DNA of 64,000 bases from a virus (Duplodnaviria; Heunggongvirae; Uroviricota; Caudoviricetes), in the IMG/VR virus record IMGVR_UViG_3300048930_000918; one strand, written 5' to 3'. Positions 34,805 to 63,873 of this stretch are shown here, piece by piece. Each line of letters begins with the position of its first letter. Within the stretch, counting starts at the first letter, position 1. The position numbers and the translations under genes were made by a program. The notes beneath the pieces were generated by a model. It worked only from the letters and a program-made list of their open reading frames with translations, made no database searches and was not told the DNA's origin.

Positions 34805-35167
34805 ATGGCAAGACAAAGTGAGTTTATAAAAAACATAGATAAACATGTAGGTTCAAAGATACATGACTTTAGAATAGAAAAAGGATTAAGCCGTCAGATG
34901 TTAGCTAAAAATGTCGGTATTACGCACCAGCAATTAGCTAAATATGAACATGGTGTTAATAGAATATCAGTAGGTAGACTGCTTTTGATATGTAAAGAAC
35001 TAAATAAACCGATAACTTCTTTTATTGAGGAATATAATATTAATAGTGCGAATATCGTACTTGCTAAAGAACGTCTAACAATAGAGTTGGTTAGATCATT
35101 CAATAGTATTAAGGATGAGAAAATAAAAGAAGCAATAAACAATCTTGCGAAAGTAATGAGTAAATAA
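34805..35167 (+). CDS. XRE-family helix-turn-helix transcriptional regulator (120 aa)
   Basis: ORF track. HTH core LSRQMLAKNVGITHQQLAKYEHGVNRISVGRL. Confidence 0.7.
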   Translation: MARQSEFIKNIDKHVGSKIHDFRIEKGLSRQMLAKNVGITHQQLAKYEHGVNRISVGRLLLICKELNKPITSFIEEYNINSANIVLAKERLTIELVRSFNSIKDEKIKEAINNLAKVMSK

Positions 35168-41275: not shown

Positions 41276-41402
41276 AACTTAACAATGAAAAAATACTGTA
41301 TCAGTTTTTTCAACAACTGCACTGATGTTATAGCAAAACAAGAGGAGTTAAGTTTTGAAGAGATTTTAAGCTACTTTAATAAAGTATTTACAAAACCTTT
41401 CA
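41276..41402 (+). repeat. left copy of a 127-bp (at least) perfect direct repeat covering the primase gene start; partner at 63874..64000
   Basis: Exact identity from 9 nt upstream of the ATG through 118 nt of coding sequence. The partner copy is cut off by the window end. Confidence 0.85.
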
Positions 41403-43678
41403 CTGGCAAAAAGAATTTAGGAGCTATGGTCTGTGGCTCTTTTAAGGATAATAGGAGATCGGGCGAGAACTTAACATCACGTAGTATTTTAACCTTTGAT
41501 CTTGACGGGTATGAAGAGGATTTTAATAGTTTAAAGAATGAGATTGAAAACAGTCTTGGTAATTATACTTACATTTACTACACCACTAGCAGCAGTACTT
41601 TAATTAAGCCAAGAGCTCGGATATTACTTTTTATTGATAGGGATGTTGATAGAGACAGCTATGGTAACTTGGGAAGAAAGATAGCAGCTAAAGTATTTTC
41701 ACCTATTCTTGTAAGAGCTATTAGTGATGAGTCCAGTTTTACCCCCTCTCAACTCATGTATTTACCAAATAAGGTAAATGATGATTTTAGAACCGGTAAG
41801 AATCAGAAAGAGCTTATAAAGGTTGATGATTATATTGCTGCTCGAGAGGAAGTTAAGAAAGAGGAGGATGAGGAGTTAAAGGATTTTATAGCTGTAAGTA
41901 ACAACACTCCATTACCTAATCTGACAAAAGAAAGGGTTATGGAAACACTTGGTAACTACGATTGCAGTGAGACGGGTTACCATGAATGGTTTAAGGTATG
42001 TCAGGCTCTTCACCATCAGTTTAAAGGATCAGAAGAGGGGCTTCAGATATTTACTAATTGGAGTTTAACCGATACTCGTTATTCTGAAGAAAGAATTAAA
42101 CAGGAATGCAGACTTAAATATAAAAGTCTGACAAAAAAAATTGATAATCCAGTTACTTTTGCGTCTGTTATAAAAATAGTAAATGAGAAAAAAGGGAGTC
42201 CTAATAAAATTGATACGAATTTAAATAACGAGGGAACATATGAGAAGACAAAGGCACTATCTTTAGACTTAGACCCTGAAATTAAACAATTACTAGAGCA
42301 GATAAAACAAGATACTTTTGGAATAGACAACGAAACTGGAGAACAAAAACAATTACCACTTGATTTTACTAAATACTTAAATCTTATAAAGGAACTAAAG
42401 AGAAGACATTTAGCCAAGGGTATTGGTTTAGATAAAAAGCGAAACCTAAACTATACTACTCTCAACAGTATATATCCCGATATAATAGAATATAATAATT
42501 CACTTTCATTAGAGGAAAATGACGATAAACCATACACAGGAGAACAGTTTTTAGAAGATGTAGCAAAGAATACAAATAATGGATTAAAAACAGGTTTCTC
42601 AGACCTAGATAATAAAATAGTTATTCAACCTTCAAGCCTCGCTTTTATAGCTGGTAGGCCATCGCACGGCAAAACTACCATGATGCTTAACATATTAAGA
42701 AATATGCTTGAGGATAAAGATAATAAAGACAAAGCATTTTTGTTTTACAGCTATGAGGAAACAAGAAGCGATATTTTAATAAAAATAGTACTCAGTGTTG
42801 CCAATTATTCAGAGCTTGAGGAAGAATTGAGAGAGGAAGGGGTAGAAGGAGTAAATCTCAGGCAACAGGCATTAAATCAATTTAAGAATTACAAACTAAA
42901 TAATACTTCATTAAATCCAATATTAGAAAAAGCATATAAAAAAGTTAATAGCTGGATAGAAGAAGGAAGATTAGAGATACTTACTCCAAAATCCAATACG
43001 GAAAGTTTGAGCGCTGCAATTATAAATCGTTGTATGGCTTTCCAAAGAGAAGAACAACAAACACAGCAGGCAGGATTAAAAAAAGAAGTTGCAGCAGTAT
43101 TTATCGACTACGTGCAGAAACTAAGCACTGAAGAGAAAAGAGATAACAGACAACAAGAAATCCAAAGAATATGTCAGACTTTACTTTCAACTGCACTGGA
43201 TAAAAGATTTACAACTTCAATAATATTAGGAGCACAAGTGAACAGAACAGTAAAATCATTAGATACTTTCAATTTAGATAACATGAGAGAGTCAGGAGAT
43301 ATTGAACAGGATGCAAACCTTGTACTTGGGATATGGGATGAGCAAGCCGGTAAATTAGACTCATTCTGCCGAAAATTACAAAAACTTGAAGACAAGGAGA
43401 TTAATGATACTACAGAAATGGATAAATTAGACAAAGAGAAAGCAAGAATAAGTGAAAAAATAGAAGAACTACAATCAAGTAACAGTCAGAACAAGCCTTT
43501 AAAAATAAAAGTTTTAAAAAACAGAAATGGGGTCAAAGATGTAATAATTGACCTTTGTTGTAACCCAAACCTTTTTCGTATCAAGGATAAATATGAACTT
43601 GAATATGATATCGACAAGTTTAAGAAAGACCTTGAAGAACAAGAAAACTTAGCACCCAACAATCATAAGAAAGAGTAG
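41285..43678 (+). CDS. primase / DnaB-like replicative helicase fusion protein (797 aa)
   Basis: ORF track. C-terminal half carries the DnaB-type Walker A FIAGRPSHGKTTMMLN plus downstream helicase-like blocks. The N-terminal half is assigned as primase-like by context only. Confidence 0.7.
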   Translation: MKKYCISFFNNCTDVIAKQEELSFEEILSYFNKVFTKPFTGKKNLGAMVCGSFKDNRRSGENLTSRSILTFDLDGYEEDFNSLKNEIENSLGNYTYIYYTTSSSTLIKPRARILLFIDRDVDRDSYGNLGRKIAAKVFSPILVRAISDESSFTPSQLMYLPNKVNDDFRTGKNQKELIKVDDYIAAREEVKKEEDEELKDFIAVSNNTPLPNLTKERVMETLGNYDCSETGYHEWFKVCQALHHQFKGSEEGLQIFTNWSLTDTRYSEERIKQECRLKYKSLTKKIDNPVTFASVIKIVNEKKGSPNKIDTNLNNEGTYEKTKALSLDLDPEIKQLLEQIKQDTFGIDNETGEQKQLPLDFTKYLNLIKELKRRHLAKGIGLDKKRNLNYTTLNSIYPDIIEYNNSLSLEENDDKPYTGEQFLEDVAKNTNNGLKTGFSDLDNKIVIQPSSLAFIAGRPSHGKTTMMLNILRNMLEDKDNKDKAFLFYSYEETRSDILIKIVLSVANYSELEEELREEGVEGVNLRQQALNQFKNYKLNNTSLNPILEKAYKKVNSWIEEGRLEILTPKSNTESLSAAIINRCMAFQREEQQTQQAGLKKEVAAVFIDYVQKLSTEEKRDNRQQEIQRICQTLLSTALDKRFTTSIILGAQVNRTVKSLDTFNLDNMRESGDIEQDANLVLGIWDEQAGKLDSFCRKLQKLEDKEINDTTEMDKLDKEKARISEKIEELQSSNSQNKPLKIKVLKNRNGVKDVIIDLCCNPNLFRIKDKYELEYDIDKFKKDLEEQENLAPNNHKKE

Positions 43679-43682
43679 AAAG

Positions 43683-43871
43683 ATGGAACAAATTGAAGGA
43701 AAAAACTATTTAACTATTTTAGAAGTCATGAAAAGGCTAGAAATATCTAGGCAAACCATACTTAGATATAGAAAACAGCAGAAATTAGACTTTATTAAAT
43801 TAAGAGGAAAAATTTATATAACTGAGGAAAGTTATAAAAGTTTGTTTATTCCTGAATCAGAAAAAAAATAA
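43683..43871 (+). CDS. AlpA/excisionase-like HTH protein (62 aa)
   Basis: ORF track. LTILEVMKRLEISRQTILRYRKQQK is an HTH_17-like segment. Start is 4 nt after the primase stop. Confidence 0.5.
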   Translation: MEQIEGKNYLTILEVMKRLEISRQTILRYRKQQKLDFIKLRGKIYITEESYKSLFIPESEKK

Positions 43872-43966
43872 AAATTCATTTTCTAAAAAGCGTCTTGTAC
43901 CCTGTTATTTTATCATATACAATACAGTGTATTTAAGTTTATTAAAACGTATTTAAGGTTAATGAT

Positions 43967-44218
43967 ATGTCTACAATCACCGCTCGTATTCCAGATGAAT
44001 TAAACGCTGCTCTTTCCAAGGTTGCCAAAGTAATGGAGAGACCTAAAACATTTCTGATATACAAAGCCGTTGAGCAATATATCAGGGAGGCAGAGCAGGA
44101 TATAGAAGATGCTGAAATAGCTCTCGCAAGGATGAAAAGCCCTGATAGAAAATTTTATACTTCTGAAGAAATCAAAGAAAGACTAGAGGCTAGATACCGC
44201 AGTGAGCATAATTTATAA
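43967..44218 (+). CDS. RHH-type antitoxin (ParD/CopG-like) (83 aa)
   Basis: ORF track. MSTITARIPDELNAALSKVAK fits the RHH pattern. Overlaps the downstream toxin gene by 17 nt. Confidence 0.6.
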   Translation: MSTITARIPDELNAALSKVAKVMERPKTFLIYKAVEQYIREAEQDIEDAEIALARMKSPDRKFYTSEEIKERLEARYRSEHNL

Positions 44219-44465
44219 AACAAAGTGGGATGATAGGGCAGAGGAAGACCTTGAGCAACTTCCTTCAGAGATTGCCTTAAAAGTTCACGATCGGGTTGAG
44301 AGCCATTTAACACAGCTACCTAAGCAATTAGGGAAAGCATTAGTTGGTCAGTATAAAGGTTTATATCGATATAGATATGGGGATTACAGAATACTATATG
44401 AGATTGATGCAGATAATAGGTTAATTATTATTATTAAAATAGGACACAGAAAAGAAATTTATTAA
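44202..44465 (+). CDS. RelE/ParE-family toxin (87 aa)
   Basis: ORF track. Family signature GLYRYRYGDYRILYEID...IIIKIGHRKEIY. Confidence 0.75.
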   Translation: MSIIYKTKWDDRAEEDLEQLPSEIALKVHDRVESHLTQLPKQLGKALVGQYKGLYRYRYGDYRILYEIDADNRLIIIIKIGHRKEIY

Positions 44466-44611
44466 TTCTGGTTTTTAATTCTATGTCTGTAAATTAGCCA
44501 TTGCAGACATGGAATTATAACTAAATACATTAACAAATTAACCACCTATCAATACAAAAAATATCAGACAGTTAATTCATTCTAAAATTTTATATATACA
44601 ATGAGGTTTAC

Positions 44612-46072
44612 ATGGCAAAAATTATTCAACTACCTAAACGAGACGTTATTAAATCACTACTTGATGCAAATCACCAAGTAAGGGGAGGGGATAATAAAAA
44701 CTTTTTAGAAGAAGAGTATGTTTACCTCAATAACCGAGAAAACATATTAAAAAAACAAATAACAATCGTTCAATTATTATCCGATAATAATATAAAGCTG
44801 TTTGATGAAATAAAAAATATTGAATCAAATAAAATTAAAATACTCCCTTTAGCAGACAAAAGTAATGTTTTTTATAGTGCATTGAACTTTTTACCAAAAC
44901 CACCAAACGATAAAAACAATGTTCTTCCATTATTCGAAAAAGAAAAAGATAGATTACAATATATTAATAATCTAACCAATCAGGAATTACATAAACACTA
45001 TCAAGATCAGATCAATAATCTAAACTTGGAATTAAAATATATTCAAAACATTATTAAAACATTAAAAGAGAGTTCAAGTAATAACAATACACCTAAATTT
45101 AAAACCATACCTACATATAACGGACTCAATAACACACTAAGTAAAACTCAAAAAGAATTAATAGCACCTTTCTACAAAAAAGATAAAACCGAGAATGAAA
45201 GAAAAATTTTACAAGAAATACTGCTAAATCATGTTAAAAAAGATAATGACTTTACTAACGATCAGAAAATAGAAATTGCACAATATATAATAAACAAAGA
45301 ATATGACAAAGCCTTTGATAACTATTTGATGTTTCCTCTTACAAGAGATGAACAAAGAATATTAAGAGCTTTAAGAGAAGAAATGTATGAACAAATAAAG
45401 ATAGGAAAGATTACAGGAATGGGTCAAACTTCTTATGAAGCATATATATTGTACAATAAATTTTTTACTATCTATGGTGTAAGCAAAGACAACAAAACAA
45501 GAAAACCTATAAAAGACATCTTGTTCGGTCGTACAACAAAAGGACTTCATAAAAATATTCTTTTAGAGCATGAAAATCTAGTTACTACATCCTTAATTCT
45601 TCAGGTACAAGAAATAAAGGAGAAAACAAATCTATCTAAAGAAAATTTAGGTACTGGGTTTATAATTACAATGCCTTCCTTCCTTTTTGTAAACGAAGAC
45701 AAATTAAAAGCAAAGAACTATTATAATCAAGAGAATGAAGGTTATAGAAGATTTATGAAGACAGGGAGAATGGCTCAATCAGATGCAGCAACTAAGATAG
45801 CATGTAAATTAGAAGTACTATGCCATTGTACTATTAATAACAAAAAGAGAAAAGGTAAGAAAGTATTACTTGATTTAGAAACATTAGTCAAGATAGCTGG
45901 ATATGAAAGACGTTACCAACGTAAACCTAGCGAAACAATTAATAAGATTAAAATTATATTAGATAGTCTTGTTGAGGCTAATTATTTGATAGAGGAATGG
46001 TGTATTAAAGAAGGTAAATTTAGACAGAAACAATATATTTTTAAACCTTTAAAAATACCTCTTTCCCAGTAG
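44612..46072 (+). CDS. hypothetical 486-aa protein, candidate iteron-binding replication protein
   Basis: ORF track. No recognisable motif. Its last codons run directly into the 6x22-bp tandem array. Confidence 0.35.
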   Translation: MAKIIQLPKRDVIKSLLDANHQVRGGDNKNFLEEEYVYLNNRENILKKQITIVQLLSDNNIKLFDEIKNIESNKIKILPLADKSNVFYSALNFLPKPPNDKNNVLPLFEKEKDRLQYINNLTNQELHKHYQDQINNLNLELKYIQNIIKTLKESSSNNNTPKFKTIPTYNGLNNTLSKTQKELIAPFYKKDKTENERKILQEILLNHVKKDNDFTNDQKIEIAQYIINKEYDKAFDNYLMFPLTRDEQRILRALREEMYEQIKIGKITGMGQTSYEAYILYNKFFTIYGVSKDNKTRKPIKDILFGRTTKGLHKNILLEHENLVTTSLILQVQEIKEKTNLSKENLGTGFIITMPSFLFVNEDKLKAKNYYNQENEGYRRFMKTGRMAQSDAATKIACKLEVLCHCTINNKKRKGKKVLLDLETLVKIAGYERRYQRKPSETINKIKIILDSLVEANYLIEEWCIKEGKFRQKQYIFKPLKIPLSQ

Positions 46073-46195
46073 GGATAGGGTGTACGCCCAGTAGGGATAG
46101 GGTGTACGCCCAGTAGGGATAGGGTGTGCGCCCAGTAGGGATAGGGTGTGCGCCCAGTAGGGATAGGGTGTGCGCCCAGTAGGGATAGGGTGTGG
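46065..46195 (+). repeat. tandem 22-bp repeat array, 6 copies (CCCAGTAGGGATAGGGTGT[A/G]CG), iteron-like
   Basis: Seen directly. Copies 1-2 have A, copies 3-5 have G, and the last copy is truncated. Each unit contains a TAGGGA/TAGGGT sub-repeat. Confidence 0.85.
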
Positions 46196-46464
46196 AAATT
46201 TAGAAAACCAAATGCCCCAGAAGATGTAGTTGAAATAAGGGTTTTAAGGCTGTTTTTTAACTCTTGTTTTTTAGGTGATAAACTTAATAAAAATGATAAA
46301 TTTTTATTGCGCAAACTTTTTTCATTACCATTCAAAAAGTTTGCTTTATTCACTTAATATATAAGCCGATATATTTTTATTGGAATATCGGCTTTATATA
46401 TAGAACCTTTCCTTGGTCATCTTTTATTCCGAAGGGTGCTCGGAATGGAAAGTTTTTAGTAAGA

Positions 46465-47082
46465 ATGCCTATAATTATAATGACCAGTAAAGCATTAGAA
46501 TATATATTAAACCATAGTACAAAAGAGGTTAAAAAAATGAAAGTGTCCAATAAGAAAGTTTTAAGTAAGAGTAACTCTCTTGAACTAACCCAAATAGATG
46601 GAGAATATATTTTTACCAAGGAAGGTATAGCTCGAATTTTTGAATTAGCTGGTAGATTAACTGCTGATGATATTGCGGGATATTTCGGTATTTTCAAGAA
46701 CACATTTTACAAGATTTTAGAGCGGCAATCTGAAGCCATGGAAGCGTTTTTCAAAGGGAAGTCACATGCTGTCAATACTGTCTCTGAAGCTTTATATCGA
46801 AAAGCTATTGGTGATAGTGATATAGGTGATACCACCGCTGCAACATTTTACTTGAAGGCTTTTGCAGGTTGGAAAGACGCTAACATTCATGACGTAACAT
46901 TAAACGCAGCTGTAAGTACGCCTTTGACTGAAGAAGAAAAAGAGTTGAGAACTTTAGATGTTAAACTATATAGCAAGTTTTGCCGTGAAAATGGTTTTGA
47001 TTTTTTAATGGATACGAAAGAAAAACTTGAAAAACTCAGAGAGATGGACGAAGAAGATGAGGATATTAATCACCTCTCATAG
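46465..47082 (+). CDS. terminase small subunit-like paralog (205 aa)
   Basis: ORF track. Shares blocks with 30754..31281 (see that feature). Acidic C-terminus. Confidence 0.45.
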   Translation: MPIIIMTSKALEYILNHSTKEVKKMKVSNKKVLSKSNSLELTQIDGEYIFTKEGIARIFELAGRLTADDIAGYFGIFKNTFYKILERQSEAMEAFFKGKSHAVNTVSEALYRKAIGDSDIGDTTAATFYLKAFAGWKDANIHDVTLNAAVSTPLTEEEKELRTLDVKLYSKFCRENGFDFLMDTKEKLEKLREMDEEDEDINHLS

Positions 47083-47135
47083 ACATTCTATACTTTTTGA
47101 GTTAAAATATGTTAACAGATTAAAGATTAATTAAA

Positions 47136-47984
47136 ATGTTATCAAGCGAAGTATTGAATTTTAATACCATACGAACAAATAGACATTACATAAAGTCCAG
47201 ATCACCTAAATATGATGTAGTGAAAAATAATGCTCTAAAATATGGAGTACGCTCAAAACATCTAGTTTTACCTTGGGAGAACAAAGCTGATTATGATATT
47301 CTTCTTGCGGCTTTAATAGCTGAATATAACCCTGTAGGACCGACAGAAGAGTTTTACGTTCAAGAGATTGCAACCTATATCTGGCGTAAAGGACGTATTA
47401 TCCACGCTGAAAGTGCTAGCTTACAATCTGCTTTAAACCGAACCATTGGAATTAATGGGCAATTCGGCAGTCATCCCGCTAAAGATGCTCTACTTGACAA
47501 TAACTCCGTCAGCGTAATGGATTACGATGTTAAAAAGGCTATAATGGCTACTGAGGATGAGAACCAATTGGAAATAACTGAGTTGAAAGAATTACACTCT
47601 CATTGTATTAACGCCGAGAAAATACTGTTAGAATTTAACTCTTATGATCAAGGGTTAGATGCTCTACATATAGACGACCAGAATAAGTGGCATGAAACTT
47701 TAGATAAGGGACAGGACGAATGGACTTCGGAGAATGCAGAGGATTTACTAAGCTGGGTATCTGAATTAAAAGCTGATTATGAAGCACGCATTAATGAAGT
47801 CGAAAACAGATATCAAGTAAAACGGCAGACCTTAGGTAAAGCGTATCTAACTAACGATAGCTATGATAAAAATTTTAAATATGAGGTTGGATTCTCTCGC
47901 CAGCTTGAGAGAAGTATAGCAATGCTTCTAAAGTTACAGGAAATGAGAAAGAATAACAATTATCAATCAAAAGTTAATAATTGA
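47136..47984 (+). CDS. hypothetical protein (282 aa)
   Basis: ORF track. Confidence 0.4.
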   Translation: MLSSEVLNFNTIRTNRHYIKSRSPKYDVVKNNALKYGVRSKHLVLPWENKADYDILLAALIAEYNPVGPTEEFYVQEIATYIWRKGRIIHAESASLQSALNRTIGINGQFGSHPAKDALLDNNSVSVMDYDVKKAIMATEDENQLEITELKELHSHCINAEKILLEFNSYDQGLDALHIDDQNKWHETLDKGQDEWTSENAEDLLSWVSELKADYEARINEVENRYQVKRQTLGKAYLTNDSYDKNFKYEVGFSRQLERSIAMLLKLQEMRKNNNYQSKVNN

Positions 47985-48670
47985 TTAAGATTTTACTTTA
48001 TAGTTTATCTTCTTTATTTAAACTATCTAAAATTTTACATTTATCGATTTACTATCAATAGTAAAAAACTTATTAGAACTAATAAATCTATCTATACCTT
48101 TTGAAAAAGGATAATTGGAAGATATTATTTTTATACAGCGGTACATTTCACTATCTTCCGTATTAATCATTAAAAATAGCCTATTTTCTGGATGCACGCA
48201 AAGCAAATTACGCACTGATTTATACCTCCATAATATCTATAGCTTATAATAGATCATCTAAAAGTCATAACAAATTATAAGATATTCACAAAAAACCTTA
48301 ATAACTTTGTGGATTATCTACCTATATATACTTACAAATTAAGCACCTTGAACCTATTGCCTAGAAAAGAGGCAGATAGATAGTTTAATTGGCGTAGTTT
48401 TTTTTTGTCTTTAACTATTTTTTATTCTAATACCGGCTTATCAAATTCTAGAGTATGCTATTCCTAAATATTGTTAAAAACTATTTACAATTTATGTTTG
48501 ATATATTATTTTGCCTAAAAAAAATAAGGAGTTTATTGTTGTGCGTTTTATAATAATTGTGATAATGATTTACCTTATAGCAACATCTTTACCTTTTGAG
48601 GCTTGGTTAATGATTTTTGCTTTCAAAGGGGTACAGACTTTAATCGAAATATGTTTAGATAGGTTATTTA

Positions 48671-49627
48671 CTAAGAAACAAGTTTAGAAAAAATAGAGGA
48701 CAGGATACTTTTAATCGGTTTTGCGGATGTCATATCTTTATCTTTTAAATCATCAAATGACGTCTGACCTTCTAAAATGTCAGAATTGATTTCTTTTACT
48801 TTACCATTTTTAACTAATAGTTTCGGTTTTTGATAAACATTTTTTGTTTTACCGGTTTTTCTGTTGGTAACTTCATGAACAAAGGTTTTTTTAAAAAAGA
48901 ATTTAACTGCAACAACTCTGCGTCCCTCTTTTTCTTCCTCAAACCTTAAATCCATATCGTAATTATCGTTAATTTCTTGGCATGCGTGGTTTAGAATTTT
49001 AGCTTTAAAATCACCATATAACTTAAAACTATTACCTACTGCAAATGCTTCTCTTAATTGATCTACCGACTTTAACATCCACCCTGTCTCTTTGAACTCC
49101 TGTAGTAATTCATAAAGCCTTGTTGTGTAAAGACTACCGAAATTTGCTATTTCCTTGAGGTTATATAGTACAAATTTTTTCTTAACTTGTGCTAGGTACG
49201 GCATAACGTCATCGGTAAATTTGACTGTAATATATCCACCTCCTTTATTATATTTTGCCATTGAACAAACGTTTATTCGCCATACTTCTTTCAGCTCTAT
49301 TCTTTCCACTTTAATATCAGTCTTCATTAACTTATCTACCGCTTTTTGAAGAAATCTATAACTATTATCAATATCGGTATTAAATAACTCACTAAACTCT
49401 TTAGCGGTTAAAATATGTTCTCTTTGTAACTGTTCCGGTTGTAGATATTTTCCAAATTCATCAACCCCTCCTATTTTACTGACCAAATGCAAGAATACCT
49501 GATAATCACTATTAGTAAAATTACCGAAGTTGGCATTATTCAATTTTTTACTTTTATAAGACTTTGGTGTTTTAGATTTTAATACCTTAGGTAATTTGTT
49601 CTGCATTAATTTAATATCTATTTTCAA
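48671..49627 (-). CDS. Rep_3-family replication initiator (318 aa)
   Basis: ORF track. Rep_3-like blocks (GGYITVKF...LYNLKEIANFGSLYTTRLYELLQEF). Iterons lie 50 bp upstream. Confidence 0.6.
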   Translation of the reverse strand: MKIDIKLMQNKLPKVLKSKTPKSYKSKKLNNANFGNFTNSDYQVFLHLVSKIGGVDEFGKYLQPEQLQREHILTAKEFSELFNTDIDNSYRFLQKAVDKLMKTDIKVERIELKEVWRINVCSMAKYNKGGGYITVKFTDDVMPYLAQVKKKFVLYNLKEIANFGSLYTTRLYELLQEFKETGWMLKSVDQLREAFAVGNSFKLYGDFKAKILNHACQEINDNYDMDLRFEEEKEGRRVVAVKFFFKKTFVHEVTNRKTGKTKNVYQKPKLLVKNGKVKEINSDILEGQTSFDDLKDKDMTSAKPIKSILSSIFSKLVS

Positions 49628-49676
49628 ATATGAGTAATTGTAATACTACATATTTAATAGGTCAAATAGAAAAAAA

Positions 49677-49742
49677 CAGCTGTAAAAACCTCATAGTTCA
49701 GCTGTAAAAACCTCATAGTTCAGCTGTAAAAACCTCATAGTT
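49677..49742. repeat. three perfect 22-bp iterons (CAGCTGTAAAAACCTCATAGTT) upstream of the Rep_3 gene
   Basis: Seen directly as three contiguous identical copies. Confidence 0.85.
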
Positions 49743-49975
49743 CAATCCTTGAATGCCTTATTTCAACTAGCAATGGGGGGTAGTACAAATAATACTTCGT
49801 ATATACAAATAAATTTATGAAAGGGATAAGTGTGTGGATAACTTTAACATTTTTTGATTAAAAAAAAGAAAAAACTATCTATTAATTTGAGTTCGCTACG
49901 CTCACAAAAATATTTTTTATTTTAAGTGGTTGGCAAAAAGAATTTTTAGTTTTGCTTTTAAGGTTAGTTTTATAT

Positions 49976-50800
49976 TTACGTAATCCTCTTTGGGGAATTT
50001 AAATAATTTTTATTTGAAATTACCTTTTGACCTGTTTTATCTTCAAGTTCCAATCTTGCAGTCTTTGCAATTTTACCTCCAGCTTTACCTGCTTTTCTGT
50101 TTTCAATCATTCCTTTTGCATTTAAGCTTTCAGCAATTTGCCTAGTTGATAATTCAGCAAGAGCAGTAAAAAGTAGCTCTGCCTCTGTCATATGGTCTCT
50201 TAGGTTGTGTTTTTTTTCTAAACCTTTAAATTTTTGATGCTCTTTTATACTACTGCCAAAGCATTCTTGGTGAATGATGTTTGTTAAAGTAGCATAATCT
50301 TTACCTTCTTTAACATCATGGTCTTTCCAATAATCAGTTAACTTGTTTCTAGTTTCCTGACCTGACATTCTTCGCCTTATCCACTCATCGCTATAACCTA
50401 GCTTTTTCCAGTTACTTCTTGCTCTGTTAATCGATCTTTCAGGATCGGCAATTTCTTGTATACGTTCATAACCGACTTTAGCAAGCCACAACTTAAAAGG
50501 CTCTGCTTTAGGTGATGGGATTGATTGTATAATACGGAATAACGACTCGGTATTCGCACAATCAGTTAAGTATTTCTTACCATCAGAAGCTTTTAATTTC
50601 AGTCCGTGACAAAATGTCACGACCTCACTACCTTCTTGAGTTAATCGTTGTTTTAATTTTCTCCAATAAGCACCAGCATTAGTACTATCAGTTAATGCAC
50701 CTACAACATCAACAACCGAGAAAAACCATGTATCGGATTTTTTATCGTAGATTCTACGAATTTTGTGATCTTCAAAAATAGCTAAATCATTTTTCGTCAT
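49976..50800 (-). CDS. Bro-N domain protein (phage antirepressor-like) (274 aa)
   Basis: ORF track. N-terminus LAIFEDHKIRRIYDKKSDTWFFSVVDVVGALTDS is a typical Bro-N block. Confidence 0.6.
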   Translation of the reverse strand: MTKNDLAIFEDHKIRRIYDKKSDTWFFSVVDVVGALTDSTNAGAYWRKLKQRLTQEGSEVVTFCHGLKLKASDGKKYLTDCANTESLFRIIQSIPSPKAEPFKLWLAKVGYERIQEIADPERSINRARSNWKKLGYSDEWIRRRMSGQETRNKLTDYWKDHDVKEGKDYATLTNIIHQECFGSSIKEHQKFKGLEKKHNLRDHMTEAELLFTALAELSTRQIAESLNAKGMIENRKAGKAGGKIAKTARLELEDKTGQKVISNKNYLNSPKRIT

Positions 50801-51053
50801 AAAATTACCTAATTTGATATTAAAAATTTACTAACTATTCATTTTTAAACAAACTTAAGAAAATAGTATAGGTATATAATTCTTATAGCTCTATTTCTTA
50901 AATAAATACGTTTATAGTAGTATTTATGAGTGGTAATAGGCAACCATAGCTTAAATATATTTAAGCTATTATAAGGTGATTAAAATAGGAAATTCATATT
51001 TAATACATTTTAGGGTTTAAATCCGAATTATCCTTAATTTTGGTAGTTCATCA

Positions 51054-53324
51054 TCATTCCTGATTATTAGCTAATCCCATCAATTGAGCGAGGTATCCTT
51101 GATGTTTAGGCATTAATTCCTTTAGATTTGTGCTTTTCCTCTTTAATACTTTTTGAGCATATACAGGGTCGCTTAAGAACTCGTACAAGGTATTATAACT
51201 TGGATTAGGACGTGTTATTTCCTTTAAACTAGAACCTATTTGCTTCAAACCAGGGATGTGAGTAGCCTTTAAAACGGAACCTGTTTTTTTGTGTGGCTGT
51301 ATCACTTGGTCGCCGAGGTATTTTCTAGTTATATCATCCAGCATCCTTTTAGTGTTGGTAGGAGAACCGAAAGCACTATTGTCAGACAACACTATACTCC
51401 TGTTCTTCAAGTATTCGTTTAGCTTATCAAGCTCTGACATCTCATTTTTATCTAAGATTGCTTCAAGTCTTGGTCTTTGCTGTTTTATAAAGCCAGAACT
51501 CTTGGCATAACTAGGTACTCCACCCTCTATATCCACCGCTTTACCTAAGTACTTATCCCGTAAATAAGCTCTTGTTAATTCATCTGTTCGACTTCCTCTT
51601 GTCCACTTTCCATATTTTCTTACAGAATCAAAAGGAGCTGCTAAAATCGATGGCGGTAACTTCTCTGCGGGCGTCAAGAATTGTCCGTACGGGTCTTTGG
51701 CTATGAAACTATTTAAAAATTCGTCTTGTTCTACTTCATTGATTTTAGGTGAATGTTTTTTATATGTCCGCCTTGCCTTCGAACCTGTATCAGTAGCTTC
51801 AAGGTCTTTCTCTAACGCATCAGCATAACGATTTAAAAAATTTCTTTCCTCTTTGGTAGTAGATTCTTTAAGAGCTTCATTTCGCATATTTTTGAGCGTT
51901 GAGTCAATGTGAGCTGGTCTATATTTACCCCTCTCAAGACCTTTAATTTTTGCTTCTAAATCACCTATTTTCTGAAAATCAGGATTTTCCAGCATTAATT
52001 GTTTTCTAACAGCTGGAGATAATTTATTGATATCAATTTCTGATTTTTTACTACTAATTTTAGATTTCTTTTGAAGCTCAGCTAGCTCGTGCTTTAATTT
52101 TTTCAGTAAAGTAGCATTCTTATCAGGTAGCATTCCAGAATAACGCTTTAAAGTTCTTTCAAGTTCGCCAGTATTATCAGCAATTCCTTGATTTATAGCA
52201 CTCTCAAAATTTGTTACTGGGTATAGATTTTGAGATTCTAGTTGTGCCTGATAGTACGGCGCAGATGCTTTTTCTCTAATCTTTTTTAACTTCCCTACTT
52301 CTGTATTGAAAAATTCCCTTCCTTCCCTGCCAACTTCTTCCACTGTAGGGCTATAATTTTCTACGCCGATTTTATCTATTTTACTTCTTAGAACAGCGTC
52401 ATTTTGTTTTTGTTTATTTAAAATTGTACTAGAATTAGGTGCGTATGTATTATGAAGCCCTGAAATTTGATTATTCAAAGCCACTTCGGCAGTTACGGGT
52501 ACAACATCAAGCCCGTCAGCTTTAAATTCATTTAATTTTTCTAAATCTTTCCCTTTGGTTAAATCATTTACCAAAGCACTGACTTTTCTTTCTGCTTTCT
52601 TTGTATCTATTTTCCTATTATATCTTGATGCAAAAGGTATCTTTATGTCTGAAGCTTTTTGTGCTCCCAGTTTAACAGCAGGTATCGGTCTAGTGTTTCC
52701 AAGTGCTATACCTGTTATATCCGCAACAGGTTCAGGTACGCCATAGTATTGATTTAGTCCGCCTGAAATACCACCTCCGGCAGCTCCGGATAATAAACTT
52801 TTGCCATAATTAACGGCGGTAGTACTTGGAAAAGGCATATTAGCCGTTGCACCTACAAAATTGCCTGATTTATAGAGTACATTTCCCAGTTTATCATCTT
52901 CATCAGGTCGCATTGACTCCAGAGCTTCTAACCCTTTTTCTGCACTATTAGCCATTACTTGTGCTGACTGCGGTAAAATTGGAGCAACTACCCCTGGGGC
53001 AACTTCCATAACACCAGCTCCGAATTGGTCAGCTGCCTCAGCTAATCCTGCACTACTAAAACCTGCTAATGCTCCACTGCCAAATTGCTTGGCTCTATCA
53101 AGTAATGAAAAATTGTCTTCTTGATCATCTAGGACACTACCACCCCTTCGTAAAGCCTCAGGAATATTCTTAACTTTAATTTTCCAAAGCTTACCATCCT
53201 TGGACTGGACTTTGATTTTCTGATCTTCATTAACTAATCGACCGCCTCTCTCAAACGCTTTTCCAACATTCTCGGGCTTAATGTCCCATATTCTCCCGTC
53301 TCTTGATTGAACCTTAACTTTCAT
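51054..53324 (-). CDS. large virion-protein paralog (756 aa) of 7466..9757
   Basis: ORF track. Shared blocks (DVVPVTAEVALNNQISGLHNTYAPN; C-terminal PNPSYNTLYEFLSDPVYAQKVL). Confidence 0.6.
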   Translation of the reverse strand: MKVKVQSRDGRIWDIKPENVGKAFERGGRLVNEDQKIKVQSKDGKLWKIKVKNIPEALRRGGSVLDDQEDNFSLLDRAKQFGSGALAGFSSAGLAEAADQFGAGVMEVAPGVVAPILPQSAQVMANSAEKGLEALESMRPDEDDKLGNVLYKSGNFVGATANMPFPSTTAVNYGKSLLSGAAGGGISGGLNQYYGVPEPVADITGIALGNTRPIPAVKLGAQKASDIKIPFASRYNRKIDTKKAERKVSALVNDLTKGKDLEKLNEFKADGLDVVPVTAEVALNNQISGLHNTYAPNSSTILNKQKQNDAVLRSKIDKIGVENYSPTVEEVGREGREFFNTEVGKLKKIREKASAPYYQAQLESQNLYPVTNFESAINQGIADNTGELERTLKRYSGMLPDKNATLLKKLKHELAELQKKSKISSKKSEIDINKLSPAVRKQLMLENPDFQKIGDLEAKIKGLERGKYRPAHIDSTLKNMRNEALKESTTKEERNFLNRYADALEKDLEATDTGSKARRTYKKHSPKINEVEQDEFLNSFIAKDPYGQFLTPAEKLPPSILAAPFDSVRKYGKWTRGSRTDELTRAYLRDKYLGKAVDIEGGVPSYAKSSGFIKQQRPRLEAILDKNEMSELDKLNEYLKNRSIVLSDNSAFGSPTNTKRMLDDITRKYLGDQVIQPHKKTGSVLKATHIPGLKQIGSSLKEITRPNPSYNTLYEFLSDPVYAQKVLKRKSTNLKELMPKHQGYLAQLMGLANNQE

Positions 53325-53327
53325 GTT

Positions 53328-54350
53328 CTACAAATCTCCGAAATCATCAGAATCATTGATATTATTAGGAGTACTGCTAACATTGTCGGATACAGTGCCA
53401 TCGCTGTATCCGCTTAACCCTTCTGTAGTATTAGGCGTAACATTTACCATTCCTGAATCATACCCTCCTTCCTTGGCATCCCTTATTATTATTTCTTGCA
53501 TCTTTTTCAAGGTGGCTAAATTAGTTGCATCTGAATTATAAGGGGATATATGCGGTAATGATGCAAATTCAATTTGATTGGTGTAATTCATTAACTTATT
53601 TCCATATCCCGCTAATAATGAACCAAGAGTCTCTATCTCGGCTTGCTCAGGTGTTAAAGGAATAGAAATACCCCCCTTCTCTGCTAGCCAGTTATTGTTA
53701 ACAGTTCTTTTTAATAATCCTGCTTCTCCTTTAGAATCCTCACCTGTTGCTTCGGCTAACGCCTGATTTCTATTAATAGTAGCTATTGCGTTATCAATTG
53801 TGCGTGTAATCCCTTCCATTCCTAGTTTGTGTTTCTTATCAAACGGAGTTTCTTTTTTCTGAGCACCTGCTGCCATTCTGGCAAATATAGATCGTTTATG
53901 ATGATCTTTCATCTCACCCAGCTTTTCTTGTTCTAGTGCCATTTTCTGGGCATTCATCTCTCTATTATAAGCATCCTGCTCCATCCGAGCTGCTTTAGCT
54001 TCCTCACCCGCTCTAAATCTATGTGCCATATCAGCAAACACACTATTCTGATTCTGTGATGCTTCTTCACTCTGATCATAAGCTCTCATCCCAGCTGGTA
54101 CTCCTCTTGCAGCTGCTGCGAACTTACCCATGAATCCCCTACTCATTGGGGTCTGATCCTGATTTAAAGCCTCACTAAAGCCCATTAGTCCCGTGCGGAA
54201 TGCTTTATCTGATTGTTCTTCATCCATCCCGATAGACTGCTTGGCACTCTTGATCGCCCTCATCACTCCTTCATCAAAAGGTGATTTCTTCTGCATATTC
54301 TGATCAATGAAAGCTTGTCTATCAAGCATGTCCTGCATGTATTTACTCAT
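53328..54350 (-). CDS. virion-protein paralog (340 aa) of 9742..10872
   Basis: ORF track. N-terminus MSKYMQDMLDRQAFIDQNMQKKSPFDEGVMRAIKSAKQS is near-identical to 9742..10872. Confidence 0.6.
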   Translation of the reverse strand: MSKYMQDMLDRQAFIDQNMQKKSPFDEGVMRAIKSAKQSIGMDEEQSDKAFRTGLMGFSEALNQDQTPMSRGFMGKFAAAARGVPAGMRAYDQSEEASQNQNSVFADMAHRFRAGEEAKAARMEQDAYNREMNAQKMALEQEKLGEMKDHHKRSIFARMAAGAQKKETPFDKKHKLGMEGITRTIDNAIATINRNQALAEATGEDSKGEAGLLKRTVNNNWLAEKGGISIPLTPEQAEIETLGSLLAGYGNKLMNYTNQIEFASLPHISPYNSDATNLATLKKMQEIIIRDAKEGGYDSGMVNVTPNTTEGLSGYSDGTVSDNVSSTPNNINDSDDFGDL

Positions 54351-54518
54351 AATTTACTTCTAATTTCTTTAACATCCCAATTATATCATAATATTTAAGT
54401 ATCTTAAAGCTTCTTTCCCTGATGTTTTAAGTATCTCAACATGAATAGATTGTTTACGTTGAAAATTATTGCGACAGAAAAAATATAACATAAGGTTTCA
54501 AGGCATAGATACGTAAAT

Positions 54519-54562
54519 GGGGTTCTTTGCGAGAAAAATTGTCCTTTCCCGCAAAGAACCCC
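54519..54562. other. GC-rich 13-bp-stem hairpin (GGGGTTCTTTGCG ... CGCAAAGAACCCC)
   Basis: Seen directly, with an 18-nt loop. No downstream T-run on either strand. Confidence 0.5.
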
Positions 54563-54578
54563 TAAATAAGCTGTAAAA

Positions 54579-54758
54579 TCAAAAGTAAACTATTCTAAAT
54601 GTGTAATATCTAGCAAAACATCAGAAAAATTTTTAATTATAAATCCAAGAGCTGTTAGAATCTCTAAAATTAAATATAACGTATTCTCTTCAAGATGAAT
54701 TAATCTTGCGAACAGTAGTAGAACTAGAATATTGAGGCTGATGATGATATATTTCATT
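54579..54758 (-). CDS. small hydrophobic protein (59 aa), family with 6106..6297 and 55083..55238
   Basis: Not in the ORF track (under 60 aa). Product MKYIIISLNILVLLLFARLIHLEENTLYLILEILTALGFIIKNF... Confidence 0.35.
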
Positions 54759-55082
54759 TTTTACCTTTATGTGATAATGGATTATAAGAAAAATACAAAA
54801 AATATTAAAAATTCTTTTATAATTCAAATCTTCTTTAAGAAAAATTTTAACCCTAATAAAATAACAAAATATGCTTCCTAATAGTCCTTGGGTTAAAATT
54901 GGGTATTTTTCAGAAAAAAGTTCTTCAAGTTTACCTACCCATGGTTTTATGAAAAAATTAATTATTACAAATAAATAGAAAATATTGGATATTTTAATTT
55001 TTTCTTTTTTAAAATATCTAGTATGTCCGATATAGAATAATATGCTGACGAAAAGAAATGATTAAACTGTAAACAAAATCAA

Positions 55083-55238
55083 TCATTTTTTGTGATGTTC
55101 CATATTCCAAAATAATACACAACACGCAATACCTATCCCTTCCATAACTAAAAACAAATTATCGTTTTCAATGTATAGGAGTCTACCTGCAACGATCAAA
55201 GCAAGACAATTTAGTAGTACTATTAGAATTTCTTTCAT
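55083..55238 (-). CDS. small hydrophobic protein (51 aa), same family; start overlaps upstream stop (ATGA)
   Basis: Not in the ORF track. Product MKEILIVLLNCLALIVAGRLLYIENDNLFLVMEGIGIACCVLFWNMEHHKK. Confidence 0.35.
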   Translation of the reverse strand: MKEILIVLLNCLALIVAGRLLYIENDNLFLVMEGIGIACCVLFWNMEHHKK

Positions 55239-55657
55239 TTTACCCACTCTTTAACTTTTTCTTGGATTATGCCTTTCTTCTTTCTGGATTCTCTCATTTT
55301 TTCCTTATATTCTTCGTTGGGAAAAACGGAATCATGAAAATTCTTAATTACGTCCAATCTTTTCCTAACCTTACCTCTTTGCTCTGCTTCTTTTAGATGC
55401 TTCCGAGCCAGATAATCATCAATATACTTCTTCATATGTCGCTCTAGCTTATCATCACCTATATCTTCCTCCTCCTCTTCTTCGTCAGCTTCGTCAGCTT
55501 CGTCATCGTGGTAATGTTCTTCTTTATTACCTTTGACGATTTTACGAATATGAGACGGGTTTTTCAGCAGAAGGTTAACATCAACTTCATTTAGGTTGTA
55601 AGGAGTCTTTTTACCTTTAAATGGAACTTTACTTTTAGATTTCATGGTAACTTCCAA
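55235..55657 (-). CDS. acidic protein (140 aa); paralog of 5491..5898
   Basis: ORF track. Shared N-terminus (KVPFKGKKTPYNLNEVDVNLLLKNPSHIRK) plus acidic tract DDEADEADEEEEEED. Confidence 0.55.
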   Translation of the reverse strand: MEVTMKSKSKVPFKGKKTPYNLNEVDVNLLLKNPSHIRKIVKGNKEEHYHDDEADEADEEEEEEDIGDDKLERHMKKYIDDYLARKHLKEAEQRGKVRKRLDVIKNFHDSVFPNEEYKEKMRESRKKKGIIQEKVKEWVK

Positions 55658-55787
55658 TATTAATTTTCAACCATATTATACAAAAATATTTATGCCTTGT
55701 ATACCAATTAAAACCTGATATTGCTGTACTTTTTAATTAAAATATGTTAGTATTAAATCTTAATTTTAACTTAACATGTTAAAATAA

Positions 55788-56120
55788 ATGATAGATTTTA
55801 GATGTATTTACTTACCTTATTGTTTATTGAAGCAAAAGAATGGCAATTATTTAGTTTTAAATTGGAATTATAAGCCTTTAGGTTTTGCTACTAATGATTT
55901 TTTACAATATGAGGATTATCCAATAGAAGTTAAGTTTAGAGGTTTAACTAAGATTACAGCAGCTAAATTATCATGGAACGAATCTAGTGATGTAGAAAAA
56001 ATATTTTTATATAACGATGGTTGTATTCCCACAGTCTCTGATGAGAATATGAAGAAATATTTAAAAAAATTAAAAATATTAGCAACACTTAAAATTGAAG
56101 ATATGCAATACAAGTTGTAG
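55788..56120 (+). CDS. hypothetical protein (110 aa)
   Basis: ORF track. Confidence 0.35.
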   Translation: MIDFRCIYLPYCLLKQKNGNYLVLNWNYKPLGFATNDFLQYEDYPIEVKFRGLTKITAAKLSWNESSDVEKIFLYNDGCIPTVSDENMKKYLKKLKILATLKIEDMQYKL

Positions 56121-56137
56121 TAGAAGAGGCTAAGCAA

Positions 56138-56761
56138 ATGAAAGAAAAAGAACTAAATAAATCCGAAGCGGAAATTGTCAATCAGTTAAAGATGATGTTA
56201 GCTTCTTACCAAACGTTACCTGAAGGAAGGAGTAGGATAAACAAATTTATAAATAATGAGCGCCAAAAAATCAATAATATTCCAACAATAGAAGAAATTA
56301 AAGAGGTTTTATCTTCTTGTTATTTCAATAAATATAGCCTTCCAGAGGCATTGATAGTAAACGCTTTAATTGAATTTAACAGGGAAAAATATCAAAACGA
56401 AAATAGATATGGGCTATTAGCGCATATTAAAAGCTTAATTCGAGGTAGAAATAGCAACCTCGAATTAAAAAATTTAATTAAAAAGAATACTCATGTTAAT
56501 CGTATTAAAGCCGGAACTGCTGCATTTAATATTCTGAAAGAAAAAATAACACAAAAAGGATACACACCAAACTTAAAATCCTCAGAAATATGGGATAAAA
56601 TTCAAAAGGATATTGAGTGTTTTGCTGATCACGTTGATTGGTTGGTACTTTCAGCAGAATTAGTTTTACATCGTGACGAATTTGAACTTTTCTCACTAAG
56701 GTCAGACCTATCTTATGAGAGAATGTGTCGTTTAAAAAAGTTAGTTAATAATGCAACCTAA
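56138..56761 (+). CDS. hypothetical protein (207 aa)
   Basis: ORF track. AAGAGG RBS upstream. Confidence 0.4.
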   Translation: MKEKELNKSEAEIVNQLKMMLASYQTLPEGRSRINKFINNERQKINNIPTIEEIKEVLSSCYFNKYSLPEALIVNALIEFNREKYQNENRYGLLAHIKSLIRGRNSNLELKNLIKKNTHVNRIKAGTAAFNILKEKITQKGYTPNLKSSEIWDKIQKDIECFADHVDWLVLSAELVLHRDEFELFSLRSDLSYERMCRLKKLVNNAT

Positions 56762-56776
56762 TTTACAACACTCAGC

Positions 56777-57151
56777 ATGAGCAAAGAACCAATAATGGAA
56801 GATAATACACCAACTGAAGATTTACATGAAATAGCAGATGTTAAATTTCTAAGAATGTTTGAATTAGTTAAGGATAAATACGAACTATCCTTAATTCCAA
56901 ATACATATGTTTATCCTGAATTGAGAGGAAAAATATTGTGGACGATGCAAGCGGACTCACTAAAAGAGTTGTTATATTCAATCACTATCATTAGTAAAAT
57001 CCTAAAAAGCATAGTAGTTTTCCAAGATACTATTGAAGCAGTGGAGATTAGAGAAATAGAAACTGGAAAAGTTCTACTGCGATTAACTATATTAGATATT
57101 TTTACTGGATGCTTTACTCGTAGAGAGATGAATAGTAATAAAACTAATTAA
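56777..57151 (+). CDS. hypothetical protein (124 aa)
   Basis: ORF track. Confidence 0.4.
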   Translation: MSKEPIMEDNTPTEDLHEIADVKFLRMFELVKDKYELSLIPNTYVYPELRGKILWTMQADSLKELLYSITIISKILKSIVVFQDTIEAVEIREIETGKVLLRLTILDIFTGCFTRREMNSNKTN

Positions 57152-57383
57152 CAAATTTTTCCTGATAAAAAATAATAAAAACTCCTGTAGCTACCCAAAT
57201 TTAAATAACCATTGCTACCAATTAAAACTAGCCTCAGGTATTTAATTTTATTCAACAACGTATTGCGCACTGTAATAAATTCCAAAAAATTATTAATCAG
57301 CATTTCGGCTAATCGTCAATTTCATTTACTATTTTTCTGATTTCCATTTTTTTGAATCTGAAAATCAAAGTTATAACAAACAT

Positions 57384-57992
57384 TTGCAGAATTTTGTTAT
57401 ACGCAATATGCAAACTAAATTTGCTTGCTTAATAAAATTCGTTTCTTTAGAATTAGTTACTTTTTTTAAATTCTATGAGTTGTCCTACTCAAAAAAGTTT
57501 CAATGGAAAAACAAAGATGAAATGGTTATTATGCAAACTAGTTATGATTTAATGTCTAGGCCGAATATTGATGATATTAATAAGCAAATAAAAAGTATAC
57601 TTGATACTATGATACAATTAATTCAAACAGTAAAATCATTAAATTTATTAACTGATGGGACTATTTCTGAGGAAAAAATAAATTATTTAAGAAATTTCCT
57701 TGATACTAGACTAAATAATGAGATATCTGAATTACAAGAAAACACAGAACAAAAAAATCAATGTTCTAGAGAAAATAATAATTCAAACCTTACCACTTCC
57801 CAATTAAATGAACTCATACAAAATAGATTAGATACTATTATAAAATTAGTTAAAGCAATCACATTATTAAGTGATAAAAATATTTTCTTCGACCAAAAAG
57901 AATTATTAAATACTCTTTTGCAAAAAGAGCTAAATAATGAGATATCTGAATTACAGAAATTGCAAGAGGGAAAGCTGAGTTTGGTAAATTGA
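57384..57992 (+). CDS. hypothetical protein with internal duplication (202 aa); true start may be downstream
   Basis: ORF track. LDTRLNNEISELQENTEQ repeats as LQKELNNEISELQKLQEG. Confidence 0.35.
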   Translation: MQNFVIRNMQTKFACLIKFVSLELVTFFKFYELSYSKKFQWKNKDEMVIMQTSYDLMSRPNIDDINKQIKSILDTMIQLIQTVKSLNLLTDGTISEEKINYLRNFLDTRLNNEISELQENTEQKNQCSRENNNSNLTTSQLNELIQNRLDTIIKLVKAITLLSDKNIFFDQKELLNTLLQKELNNEISELQKLQEGKLSLVN

Positions 57993-58046
57993 TTAAAAAC
58001 AAACTATAAAAAGTAATAATATTGCGTATATGATGTTCTCACTAGT

Positions 58047-58859: not shown

Positions 58860-59172
58860 ATTACCTTTTATTTTTAATTGTTTTGGGTTACCTTTTTACT
58901 GCCGTAAATCGTAAGTTTTATTATAAGGATTGCCGTAGTGTTCCTTTAACTTTGATACTTCCATGTTGAGTGATATTCGCATACATGACTACATCCCATA
59001 AAAACGTAATATAAGTTTCCTTTAAATGTTTTATTTAAAGTAGTGAGGCAAATATACATTAAATATCTTGAAAACCAAAGCTGGTTAAAGCATATTAATT
59101 TTAAAAATATCTTTAATGATATTAAATAAATAACTGATAATAGTACATTATTATATTAAGTATCTTTAAAGT

Positions 59173-63822: not shown

Positions 63823-63873
63823 AGTAAACAAATGAATGATGATTTTATTAGTTGCCATGATGGCATCTCTAGT

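Follow-up and report, generated by a model that had tools for sequence, protein, structure and literature searches.

Known phage satellites change capsid size or packaging specificity. SaPI satellites and some PICI satellites (the latter being phage-inducible chromosomal islands) carry a small terminase subunit of their own (TerS_SP), as do the minimal satellites of the PICMI type, and satellite TerS genes typically lie without an adjacent gene for the large terminase subunit (TerL). P4 exists as a plasmid or in integrated form and encodes an integrase, a primase-helicase and an AlpA/Vis-type regulator, while its helper supplies all virion proteins; the P4 cos site is read by the helper terminase, P4 is not known to have a TerS of its own, and its Sid and Psu proteins remodel capsid size. 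Few routes of horizontal gene transfer are obvious in obligate intracellular Rickettsiales; even so, their plasmids are mosaics and widely shared. Phage packaging genes have been described on Wolbachia plasmids, together with the speculation that plasmids free of phage genes may act as satellites (PMC9560607). A subgroup of the marine VEIMEs (Eppley et al. 2022) has ParA/RepA-like genes, no capsid genes, and a TerS nearest to that of co-occurring phages, as set out in the sections of the report drawn on here (PMC9618062); the same sections record VEIMEs physically found in virus particles and propose that they are packaged as concatemers into helper capsids. Our literature search found no published TerS-bearing satellite plasmid for Rickettsiales and no description of Megaera phage-plasmids or satellites.

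The locus analyzed here lies in a window of 64,000 nucleotides (the whole stretch of DNA under study) from a Caudoviricetes record, in which the genes of a podophage run into a 22.6-kb unit carrying a second small terminase gene, TerS2. The unit is like SaPI, PICI and PICMI in lacking the virion-morphogenesis and TerL genes: no TerL, portal or capsid gene was found by all-against-all comparison with the phage block or by tblastn for TerL and portal, and its TerS homologue is related to that of the co-resident phage. As in SaPI and PICI, an integrase, an AlpA-type helix-turn-helix (HTH) gene and a primase/replication module are all present on the unit, and a relative on a metagenomic contig (L017) is integrated beside a tRNA gene with a P4-type integrase. 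The differences are four. First, rather than being integrated at a chromosomal att site, the element forms a closed cycle of 22.6 kb and carries Rep_3 and ParA; because it is a plasmid, it is no PICI in the strict sense. Second, no recognisable capsid-size-redirection or Ppi/Rpp genes are seen on it. Third, it adds diverged copies of four helper late-region genes. Fourth, its host is, on our best reading, a Megaera-like Rickettsiaceae endosymbiont, and the element is known from sequence alone. An earlier, sequence-only reading had likened the arrangement to a PICI-type satellite; the satellite part of that comparison is strengthened by the late-gene paralogs, a cassette under selection and the L017 island, whereas the chromosomal-island part gives way to a plasmid.

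The closest counterpart in lifestyle, by analogy of gene content, appears to be the marine VEIME subgroup with ParA/RepA-like genes. Like these, the window element is small, has maintenance genes of plasmid type and a phage-related TerS, and lacks capsid genes; unlike them, it is known from genes alone while VEIMEs have been seen in particles, and duplication of the helper late region is reported only for the window element, as far as the sections of the VEIME report used here extend. P4 is similar in being plasmid-capable and in combining an integrase, a primase-helicase and an AlpA-type HTH gene; the window element differs in having its own TerS, and no Sid or Psu homologues were seen on it. 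Among named replicons, the plasmids of Candidatus Megaera polyxenophila (Rickettsiaceae) come nearest, with a TerL about 50% identical, 84% nucleotide identity in the Rep_3 region and the SpoT-HD/MFS cargo in common. Phage-plasmids of this lineage (CP113869.1, CP113870.1, AP017967.1) share with the window the host lineage, a TerL of about that identity, ParA and the cargo, but they carry TerL and portal genes, whereas the 22.6-kb unit has only TerS and a few late-region paralogs. What sets the element apart from all of the satellite systems compared is that it has diverged versions of four further late-region genes of the helper; for a satellite to bring its own forms of several other late-region proteins would be unusual. 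We put forward, as an evenly balanced proposition, that the window element bears a satellite-type hitch-hiking cassette whose TerS would redirect the phage packaging motor. A cassette that uses the motor of a resident phage would offer a concrete and testable route of horizontal transfer for the Rickettsiales.

TerS2 and the phage small terminase

The plus-strand open reading frame listed for the window at 46465..47082 encodes 205 aa. The TerS2 gene itself probably occupies 46537..47082 (181 aa), because the proteins of all 13 homologue clusters (177–185 aa) begin at the methionine matching 46537, and this codon is preceded by a GAGG at a distance of 8 nt. The start at 46465 was dropped, since no homologue has the extension and nucleotide homology to related plasmids and elements begins only at 46520. 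The 5' extension (46465..46536, plus strand) is probably non-coding and overlaps a promoter-like -10 (TATAAT, 46470–46475); a promoter and terminator scan gave numbers no higher than in shuffles.

The resemblance of this gene to the TerS-like gene beside TerL, noticed earlier from shared sequence blocks, is borne out. TerS2 is 36% identical to the phage's own small terminase TerS1 (175 aa; 30754..31281, minus strand) across 130 aa (BLASTP, E 1e-24), and the similarity is not limited to the HTH but reaches the C-terminal helix. The family phrog_309, "terminase small subunit", is matched by TerS2 over residues 26–176 (E about 2e-15 to 4e-15) and by TerS1 at E 1e-9. This is a specific family match; Pfam and NCBIfam searches with TerS2 returned no TerS model and only sub-threshold HTH matches, and a PDB sequence search with TerS2 family profiles gave 1s7o, an unrelated HTH protein, as its sole match. 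TerS1 is two small genes upstream of TerL (28615..30159, minus strand; phrog_38, E 5e-67), which is the only large terminase of the window, as tblastn found no other. No TerL is found anywhere on the 22.6-kb unit or on the related contigs L001, L009 and L017.

A combined profile of TerS1 and TerS2 recovered 5,264 relatives at E <= 1e-3 among 1.84 billion representative proteins, and phrog_309 was matched by each of the 35 superfamily members sampled. The homologue sits just upstream of TerL and portal in Psychrobacter Y8A, Roseobacter CRP-901 and Moraxella Mcat8, and in Vibrio 1.213.O it is the first gene, abutting TerL. At profile level TerS2 can be assigned to the TerS family, and this gene position in cultured phages supports the assignment. 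Two features tie TerS2 more closely to TerS1: the two align over their full length, and the C-terminal motif D[IV]KLYxK[FY]xR[DE]xGF occurs, among the 1.84 billion representatives, only in the TerS1 and TerS2 families, other superfamily members having a shorter or different C-terminus at that place. Identity between the two proteins is highest in the HTH (44%) and amounts to 26% in the long helix, 43% in the next helix and 33% in the C-terminal helix, which takes up residues 132–151 of TerS2. Because of the full-length alignment and the lineage-only motif, TerS2 is best described, at the level of sequence, as a diverged paralog of the same phage lineage's TerS and no generic HTH protein; the outcome in which a TerS match was missing and the likeness was confined to a shared HTH domain, allowed for in the sequence-only reading, is not what was found. 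A G-R-P motif was also considered as a discriminator of TerS1 and TerS2 and was dropped, being present in just 18 of the 35 superfamily members.

In the AF2 model of TerS2, helices 28–38, 43–49 and 54–63 make up the HTH region (pLDDT 88–91) and are followed by helices 65–90 and 99–109. The predicted layout, an N-terminal HTH and then a helical oligomerisation core, is as expected of a TerS. Comparison was made with the known small terminases Sf6 gp1 and its P22-like counterparts (PDB 3hef, 3p9a); the best match of a structure search with the model was Sf6 TerS, at a weak score. The modeled fold is consistent with a small terminase, a likeness that does not amount to independent proof.

Megaera replicons also have TerS-like genes that are more remote, with about 33% identity to TerS2, namely at 19968..20552 of CP113870.1 (L014) and at 6477..7067 of AP017966.1 (L015), the latter having three such places. 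They are found between DNA polymerase B and helicase genes, and lie about 8 kb away from TerL or have no TerL nearby. TerS-like genes are thus repeatedly uncoupled from TerL in the Megaera lineage and, since these adjoin helicase genes, superfamily members may have non-packaging roles too.

Late-region paralogs and conservation of the cassette

An all-against-all comparison of the two blocks identified TerS2 and four other plasmid genes as diverged paralogs of phage genes, and the pairs are limited to TerS and these four, none of them a capsid gene. The 756-aa protein (51054..53324, minus strand) is 37% identical (E 2e-104) to a phage protein of 763 aa (7466..9757). The 340-aa protein (53328..54350, minus strand) is 64% identical over 238 aa (E 4e-99) to a phage protein of 376 aa (9742..10872); this N-terminal part is conserved and the C-termini are unrelated, and nucleotide identity is 79–83%. 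The 140-aa protein (55235..55657, minus strand) is 65% identical across 103 aa (E 3e-37) to a phage protein of 135 aa (5491..5898, plus strand), and a hydrophobic 54-aa protein (55083..55247, minus strand) is 46% identical over 37 aa (E 2e-6) to the product of the ORF at 6106..6297. The phage 376-aa and 763-aa genes, which together span 7466..10872 on the minus strand, lie between the gene of a 1495-aa fibre-like protein and that of an SU10-type adaptor. The 340-, 376-, 756- and 763-aa proteins have no match in PHROGs, Pfam or PADLOC, and we infer a virion location for the 756-, 340- and 140-aa paralogs solely from gene position. Residues 41–172 of the 756-aa protein contain a Gly/Ala-rich segment of about 110 aa. 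Dozens of proteins of about 600 aa, encoded on 52–64-kb contigs and including Megpolyxen_01615 of a Megaera plasmid, have an N-terminal part with 60–69% identity to this segment and are otherwise unrelated; the segment resembles a conserved module for attachment or targeting.

TerS2, the 282-aa gene that invariably follows it (47136..47984, plus strand), and the 756-, 340- and 140-aa genes form a cassette that recurs in relatives. The 282-aa protein has no match in Pfam, PHROG, NCBIfam, PADLOC or PDB. Two plasmid contigs, L001 (35.5 kb) and L002 (19.8 kb), carry ParA, ProQ, resolvase, DUF927 and Rep_3 genes, and a contig fragment, L009 (10.3 kb), has Rep_3 and Bro-N and, over the part available, no partition gene. 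In all three the 282-aa gene comes directly after TerS2. L001 and L009 extend far enough to show the 756- and 340-aa genes next; at the nucleotide level these contigs are 88–97% identical to the window. A different setting is seen in L017 (JACCDN010368097.1), where the order is tRNA-Ser, P4-type integrase, 361-aa gene, PolA, PriCT_2 primase, VapE, TerS2, 276-aa gene, 756- and 340-aa genes and 133-aa gene, with no Rep_3, ParA or Bro-N. To judge from this gene order, the cassette also occurs in a classical integrated-island layout, and because it is found there without Rep_3, TerS2 is tied more closely to the late-gene paralogs than to Rep_3.

Pairwise dN/dS is 0.08–0.36 for TerS2 and 0.14–0.22 for the 282-aa gene; for the 756-aa gene it is about 0.11 in most pairs and 0.28 in the nearly identical pair L001/L017, and for the 340-aa gene about 0.2, with dS up to 0.48 across these genes. 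These ratios indicate that the cassette genes are maintained by purifying selection on three different backbones. In IMG/VR contigs and GTDB species genomes the TerS2 family is absent or has only distant members, JGI and GenBank metagenomes yielded one locus (L017), and the SRA runs with TerS1 contigs and those with TerS2 contigs do not overlap among the matches listed.

The cassette could instead be the remnant or domesticated module of a degraded phage-plasmid belonging to the same lineage. TerS2 would then be an ordinary sequence-specific DNA-binding protein with no packaging role, for example a regulator or an accessory factor of plasmid replication or partition. The surroundings would suit such an origin: the lineage's Megaera plasmids are mosaics with many transposases and introns, TerS2 is placed among replication genes in the window, the distant TerS-like genes of CP113870.1 and AP017966.1 adjoin helicase and polymerase genes, and the HTH is the best-conserved part of the protein. 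In a random remnant, however, one would expect neither that the same five genes stay linked on three backbones that are unrelated nor that purifying selection acts on them at dS 0.3–0.5. Conservation goes beyond the HTH to the whole length of TerS2, including the lineage-specific C-terminal helix, and the L017 cassette, having neither Rep_3 nor ParA, is untied to that replication system. We therefore regard a remnant without packaging function, in either of these forms, as unlikely.

Organization of the 22.6-kb unit and its junction with the phage

The circular unit carrying TerS2 comprises 22,598 bp (41276..63873), about 0.4 of the size of the phage genome, and is delimited by an exact 127-nt repeat (41276–41402 and 63874–64000, the window end) at a spacing of 22,598 bp. 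The repeat begins 51 nt past the integrase stop and 9 nt before the primase ATG. The integrase, AlpA-like gene, primase, Rep_3 gene and iteron-like array named by the sequence-only reading are all present. In order around the circle, the primase-helicase (PriCT_2 and DnaB_C; 41285..43678, plus strand) is followed by the HTH_17 gene of AlpA/excisionase type (43683..43871, plus strand; PF12728, E 3e-8), and then, beyond TerS2 and the 282-aa gene, by the Rep_3 initiator (48671..49627, minus strand; Rep3_N E 3e-28, Rep3_C E 2e-15) with three 22-bp iterons upstream (49677..49744), the repeat unit of which is also kept in L001. ParA (61728..62330, plus strand) and a tyrosine integrase (62863..63822, plus strand; Phage_integrase, E 4e-23), the last gene, complete the circle. 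No tRNA gene is present in the window.

The array upstream of TerS2 is perfect and GC-rich, with six 22-bp units (CCCAGTAGGGATAGGGTGTGCG; 46065..46196), and a 486-aa ORF with no family match ends within it. The ORF and the array, which together span 44612..46196, are specific to the window plasmid, being absent in L001, L009 and L017, and may serve as a centromere, or as another initiator together with its iterons. The iteron-like array of the sequence-only reading exists; its association with TerS2 does not carry over to relatives, and Rep_3 has iterons of its own. Two functions were rejected for the array: that of TerS2 pac site, as it is not beside TerS2 in L001, L009 and L017, and that of Rep_3 iterons, as these are at 49677..49744 and the array abuts the 486-aa ORF.

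The phage and the plasmid have in common an exact stretch of 359 bp at the start of the primase gene (41276..41634, plus strand). A second copy of the start of this stretch (63874..64000, plus strand) is the k-mer overlap that closes the circle. Between positions 29909 and 41634 of the window, an independent phage contig from a sibling JGI sample (Ga0498918_0002397, 56,335 bp) has 100% identity to it; identity is about 85% on to 42193, beyond which the contig is unrelated and runs into the phage's own primase (PriCT_2 and VapE), then DUF2800, SSB and SNF2 genes. It has an exact 127-nt prefix/suffix overlap and closes as a podophage circle of 56,208 bp without the plasmid unit. The plasmid is present in the same sibling sample only as fragments of 2.7–2.8 kb, one of which (L023) ends within the repeat; phage and plasmid are both present in JGI sample 3300048834. 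The longest contig carrying TerS1 measures 78,933 bp, which is 56,208 + 22,598 + 127, and if the window is taken as the final 64,000 nt of that contig, 14,933 + 41,275 gives 56,208 exactly. Because of this sum, and because the phage closes alone, the source contig looks like a single walk round a figure-of-eight made of the 56.2-kb phage circle and the 22.6-kb plasmid circle.

A related observation concerns the primase. Its N-terminal/PriCT_2 part (41285..42193 of the window) is common to phage, plasmid, L017 (81%) and L009 (76%), and the plasmid and phage genes are identical over the first 350 nt. All of these similarities end at 42193, after which the C-terminal helicase is DnaB_C in the plasmid and VapE in the phage and L017; the corresponding coordinates (L021 11377.., L017 4979..6760, L009 1..3060) describe domain shuffling.

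Virion genes and plasmid replication and partition genes are contiguous in the window, though the phage closes alone in the sibling sample, and a true cointegrate phage-plasmid of 78.8 kb, formed through the 359-bp repeat and holding two TerS proteins of different pac specificities, has to be weighed. The contig truly runs from phage through the shared stretch into plasmid, exact identity over 359 bp would permit homologous recombination, and related Megaera replicons are phage-plasmids with ParA. We nevertheless consider a cointegrate distinctly unlikely. The phage closes alone at 56,208 bp, and the short plasmid fragments beside it imply a different abundance; the exact sum of phage, plasmid and 127, with the 127-nt terminal overlap, is what an assembler's single pass through the loop would leave; and 78.8 kb exceeds a headful sized for 56 kb. 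Most likely, then, the replicon of TerS2 is a 22.6-kb plasmid of its own, with the 359-bp repeat as its sole connection to the phage in this contig, since the phage closes at 56.2 kb without the TerS2 unit in the sibling sample. The unit that the sequence-only reading had seen at 41–64 kb is real, with sharp limits and a length of 22,598 bp, but probably a replicon apart from the phage, and the proposal that the second TerS belongs to the backbone block of the same element as TerL is probably wrong. In practical terms, a short exact repeat between phage and plasmid can yield an assembled contig that resembles a single phage-plasmid.

Proposed packaging of the plasmid

Hitch-hiking, with TerS2 on a plasmid of its own, remains the reading that we favor. 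Several lines of evidence speak for it. TerS2 is a paralog of the phage TerS and is accompanied by four further late-region paralogs, by integrase, AlpA-type HTH and primase genes and by no TerL, portal or capsid gene, in a cassette conserved under purifying selection. The 359-bp stretch links phage and plasmid, and both were present in one sample. The marine satellites with ParA/RepA-like genes and a phage-like TerS offer a precedent (PMC9618062). In the sequence of events that we propose, the co-resident 56-kb podophage would turn on its late genes, and TerS2 would oligomerise on a pac site of its own element, probably within or close to the TerS2 gene. TerS2 would then bring in the phage TerL through the C-terminal helix held in common with TerS1, and concatemers of the 22.6-kb plasmid (or of the island) would be packaged by the headful into phage capsids, where the 756-, 340-, 140- and 54-aa paralogs would take over from, or add to, the phage versions.

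Binding of TerS2 to its own pac site and to TerL, and encapsidation of the element, are what we infer from gene content and sequence. Retention of TerL binding is an assumption, as the C-terminal helix is just 33% identical to that of TerS1. A search in and around TerS2 and TerS1 for direct or inverted repeats of the pac-like kind proposed as a check by the sequence-only reading returned only short matches at chance level, and a Rep_3 theta plasmid does not obviously provide the concatemers that headful packaging needs. A further and rather doubtful step is that the cassette may re-equip particles with its own versions of late proteins, possibly internal or ejection proteins, and may move between Rep_3 plasmids and tRNA-integrated islands; if so, there would be a virus-borne route of plasmid exchange among endosymbionts of protists.

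Satellites and plasmids often carry anti-phage functions, a TerS that has diverged but keeps the helix facing TerL could end in non-productive complexes, and the Bro-N protein next to Rep_3 is a PADLOC defence candidate, so that TerS2 might act as a decoy that sequesters or misdirects TerL and shields the host population, with transfer not under selection. Such interference is very improbable, as it leaves unexplained why four diverged late-region copies accompany TerS2, and the TerS-bearing satellites described in the sections of PMC9618062 drawn on here package themselves with TerS.

Additional genes of the plasmid and the phage

Several other genes were noted on the plasmid. The Bro-N gene (49976..50800, minus strand) matches PADLOC candidate PDC-S13 over its full length (E 1.5e-123). 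An antitoxin-like gene (DUF6290) and a ParE toxin gene (E 8e-17) overlap at 43967..44465, between the AlpA-like gene and the 486-aa ORF; plasmids of the L001 type have a SocA_Panacea pair instead, between the 282-aa gene and Rep_3. The cargo at 59173..61121 consists of two overlapping and convergent genes, one for a SpoT-like HD-domain protein and one for an MFS transporter, and the same pair, disrupted by IS256, is found on the Megaera phage-plasmid CP113869.1 (21936..25224).

On the phage side, the 1495-aa protein (11520..16007, minus strand), probably a long beta-helical fibre, contains dozens of diverged repeat units of 51 nt (17 aa) at 12162..14651 and matches virion-structural and tail-spike families of PHROG (E 1e-142). 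In the early region, the gene of an SPFH/Band_7 protein (35187..36041, plus strand; phrog_200, E 8e-72) adjoins a Cro/CI-type HTH gene (34805..35167). Within the phage structural operon lies the gene of a patatin-like phospholipase (17227..18300, minus strand; PF01734, E 1.6e-19), notable because patatins serve Rickettsia as invasion factors; the Megaera plasmid CP113869.1 has a patatin gene in its structural region too.
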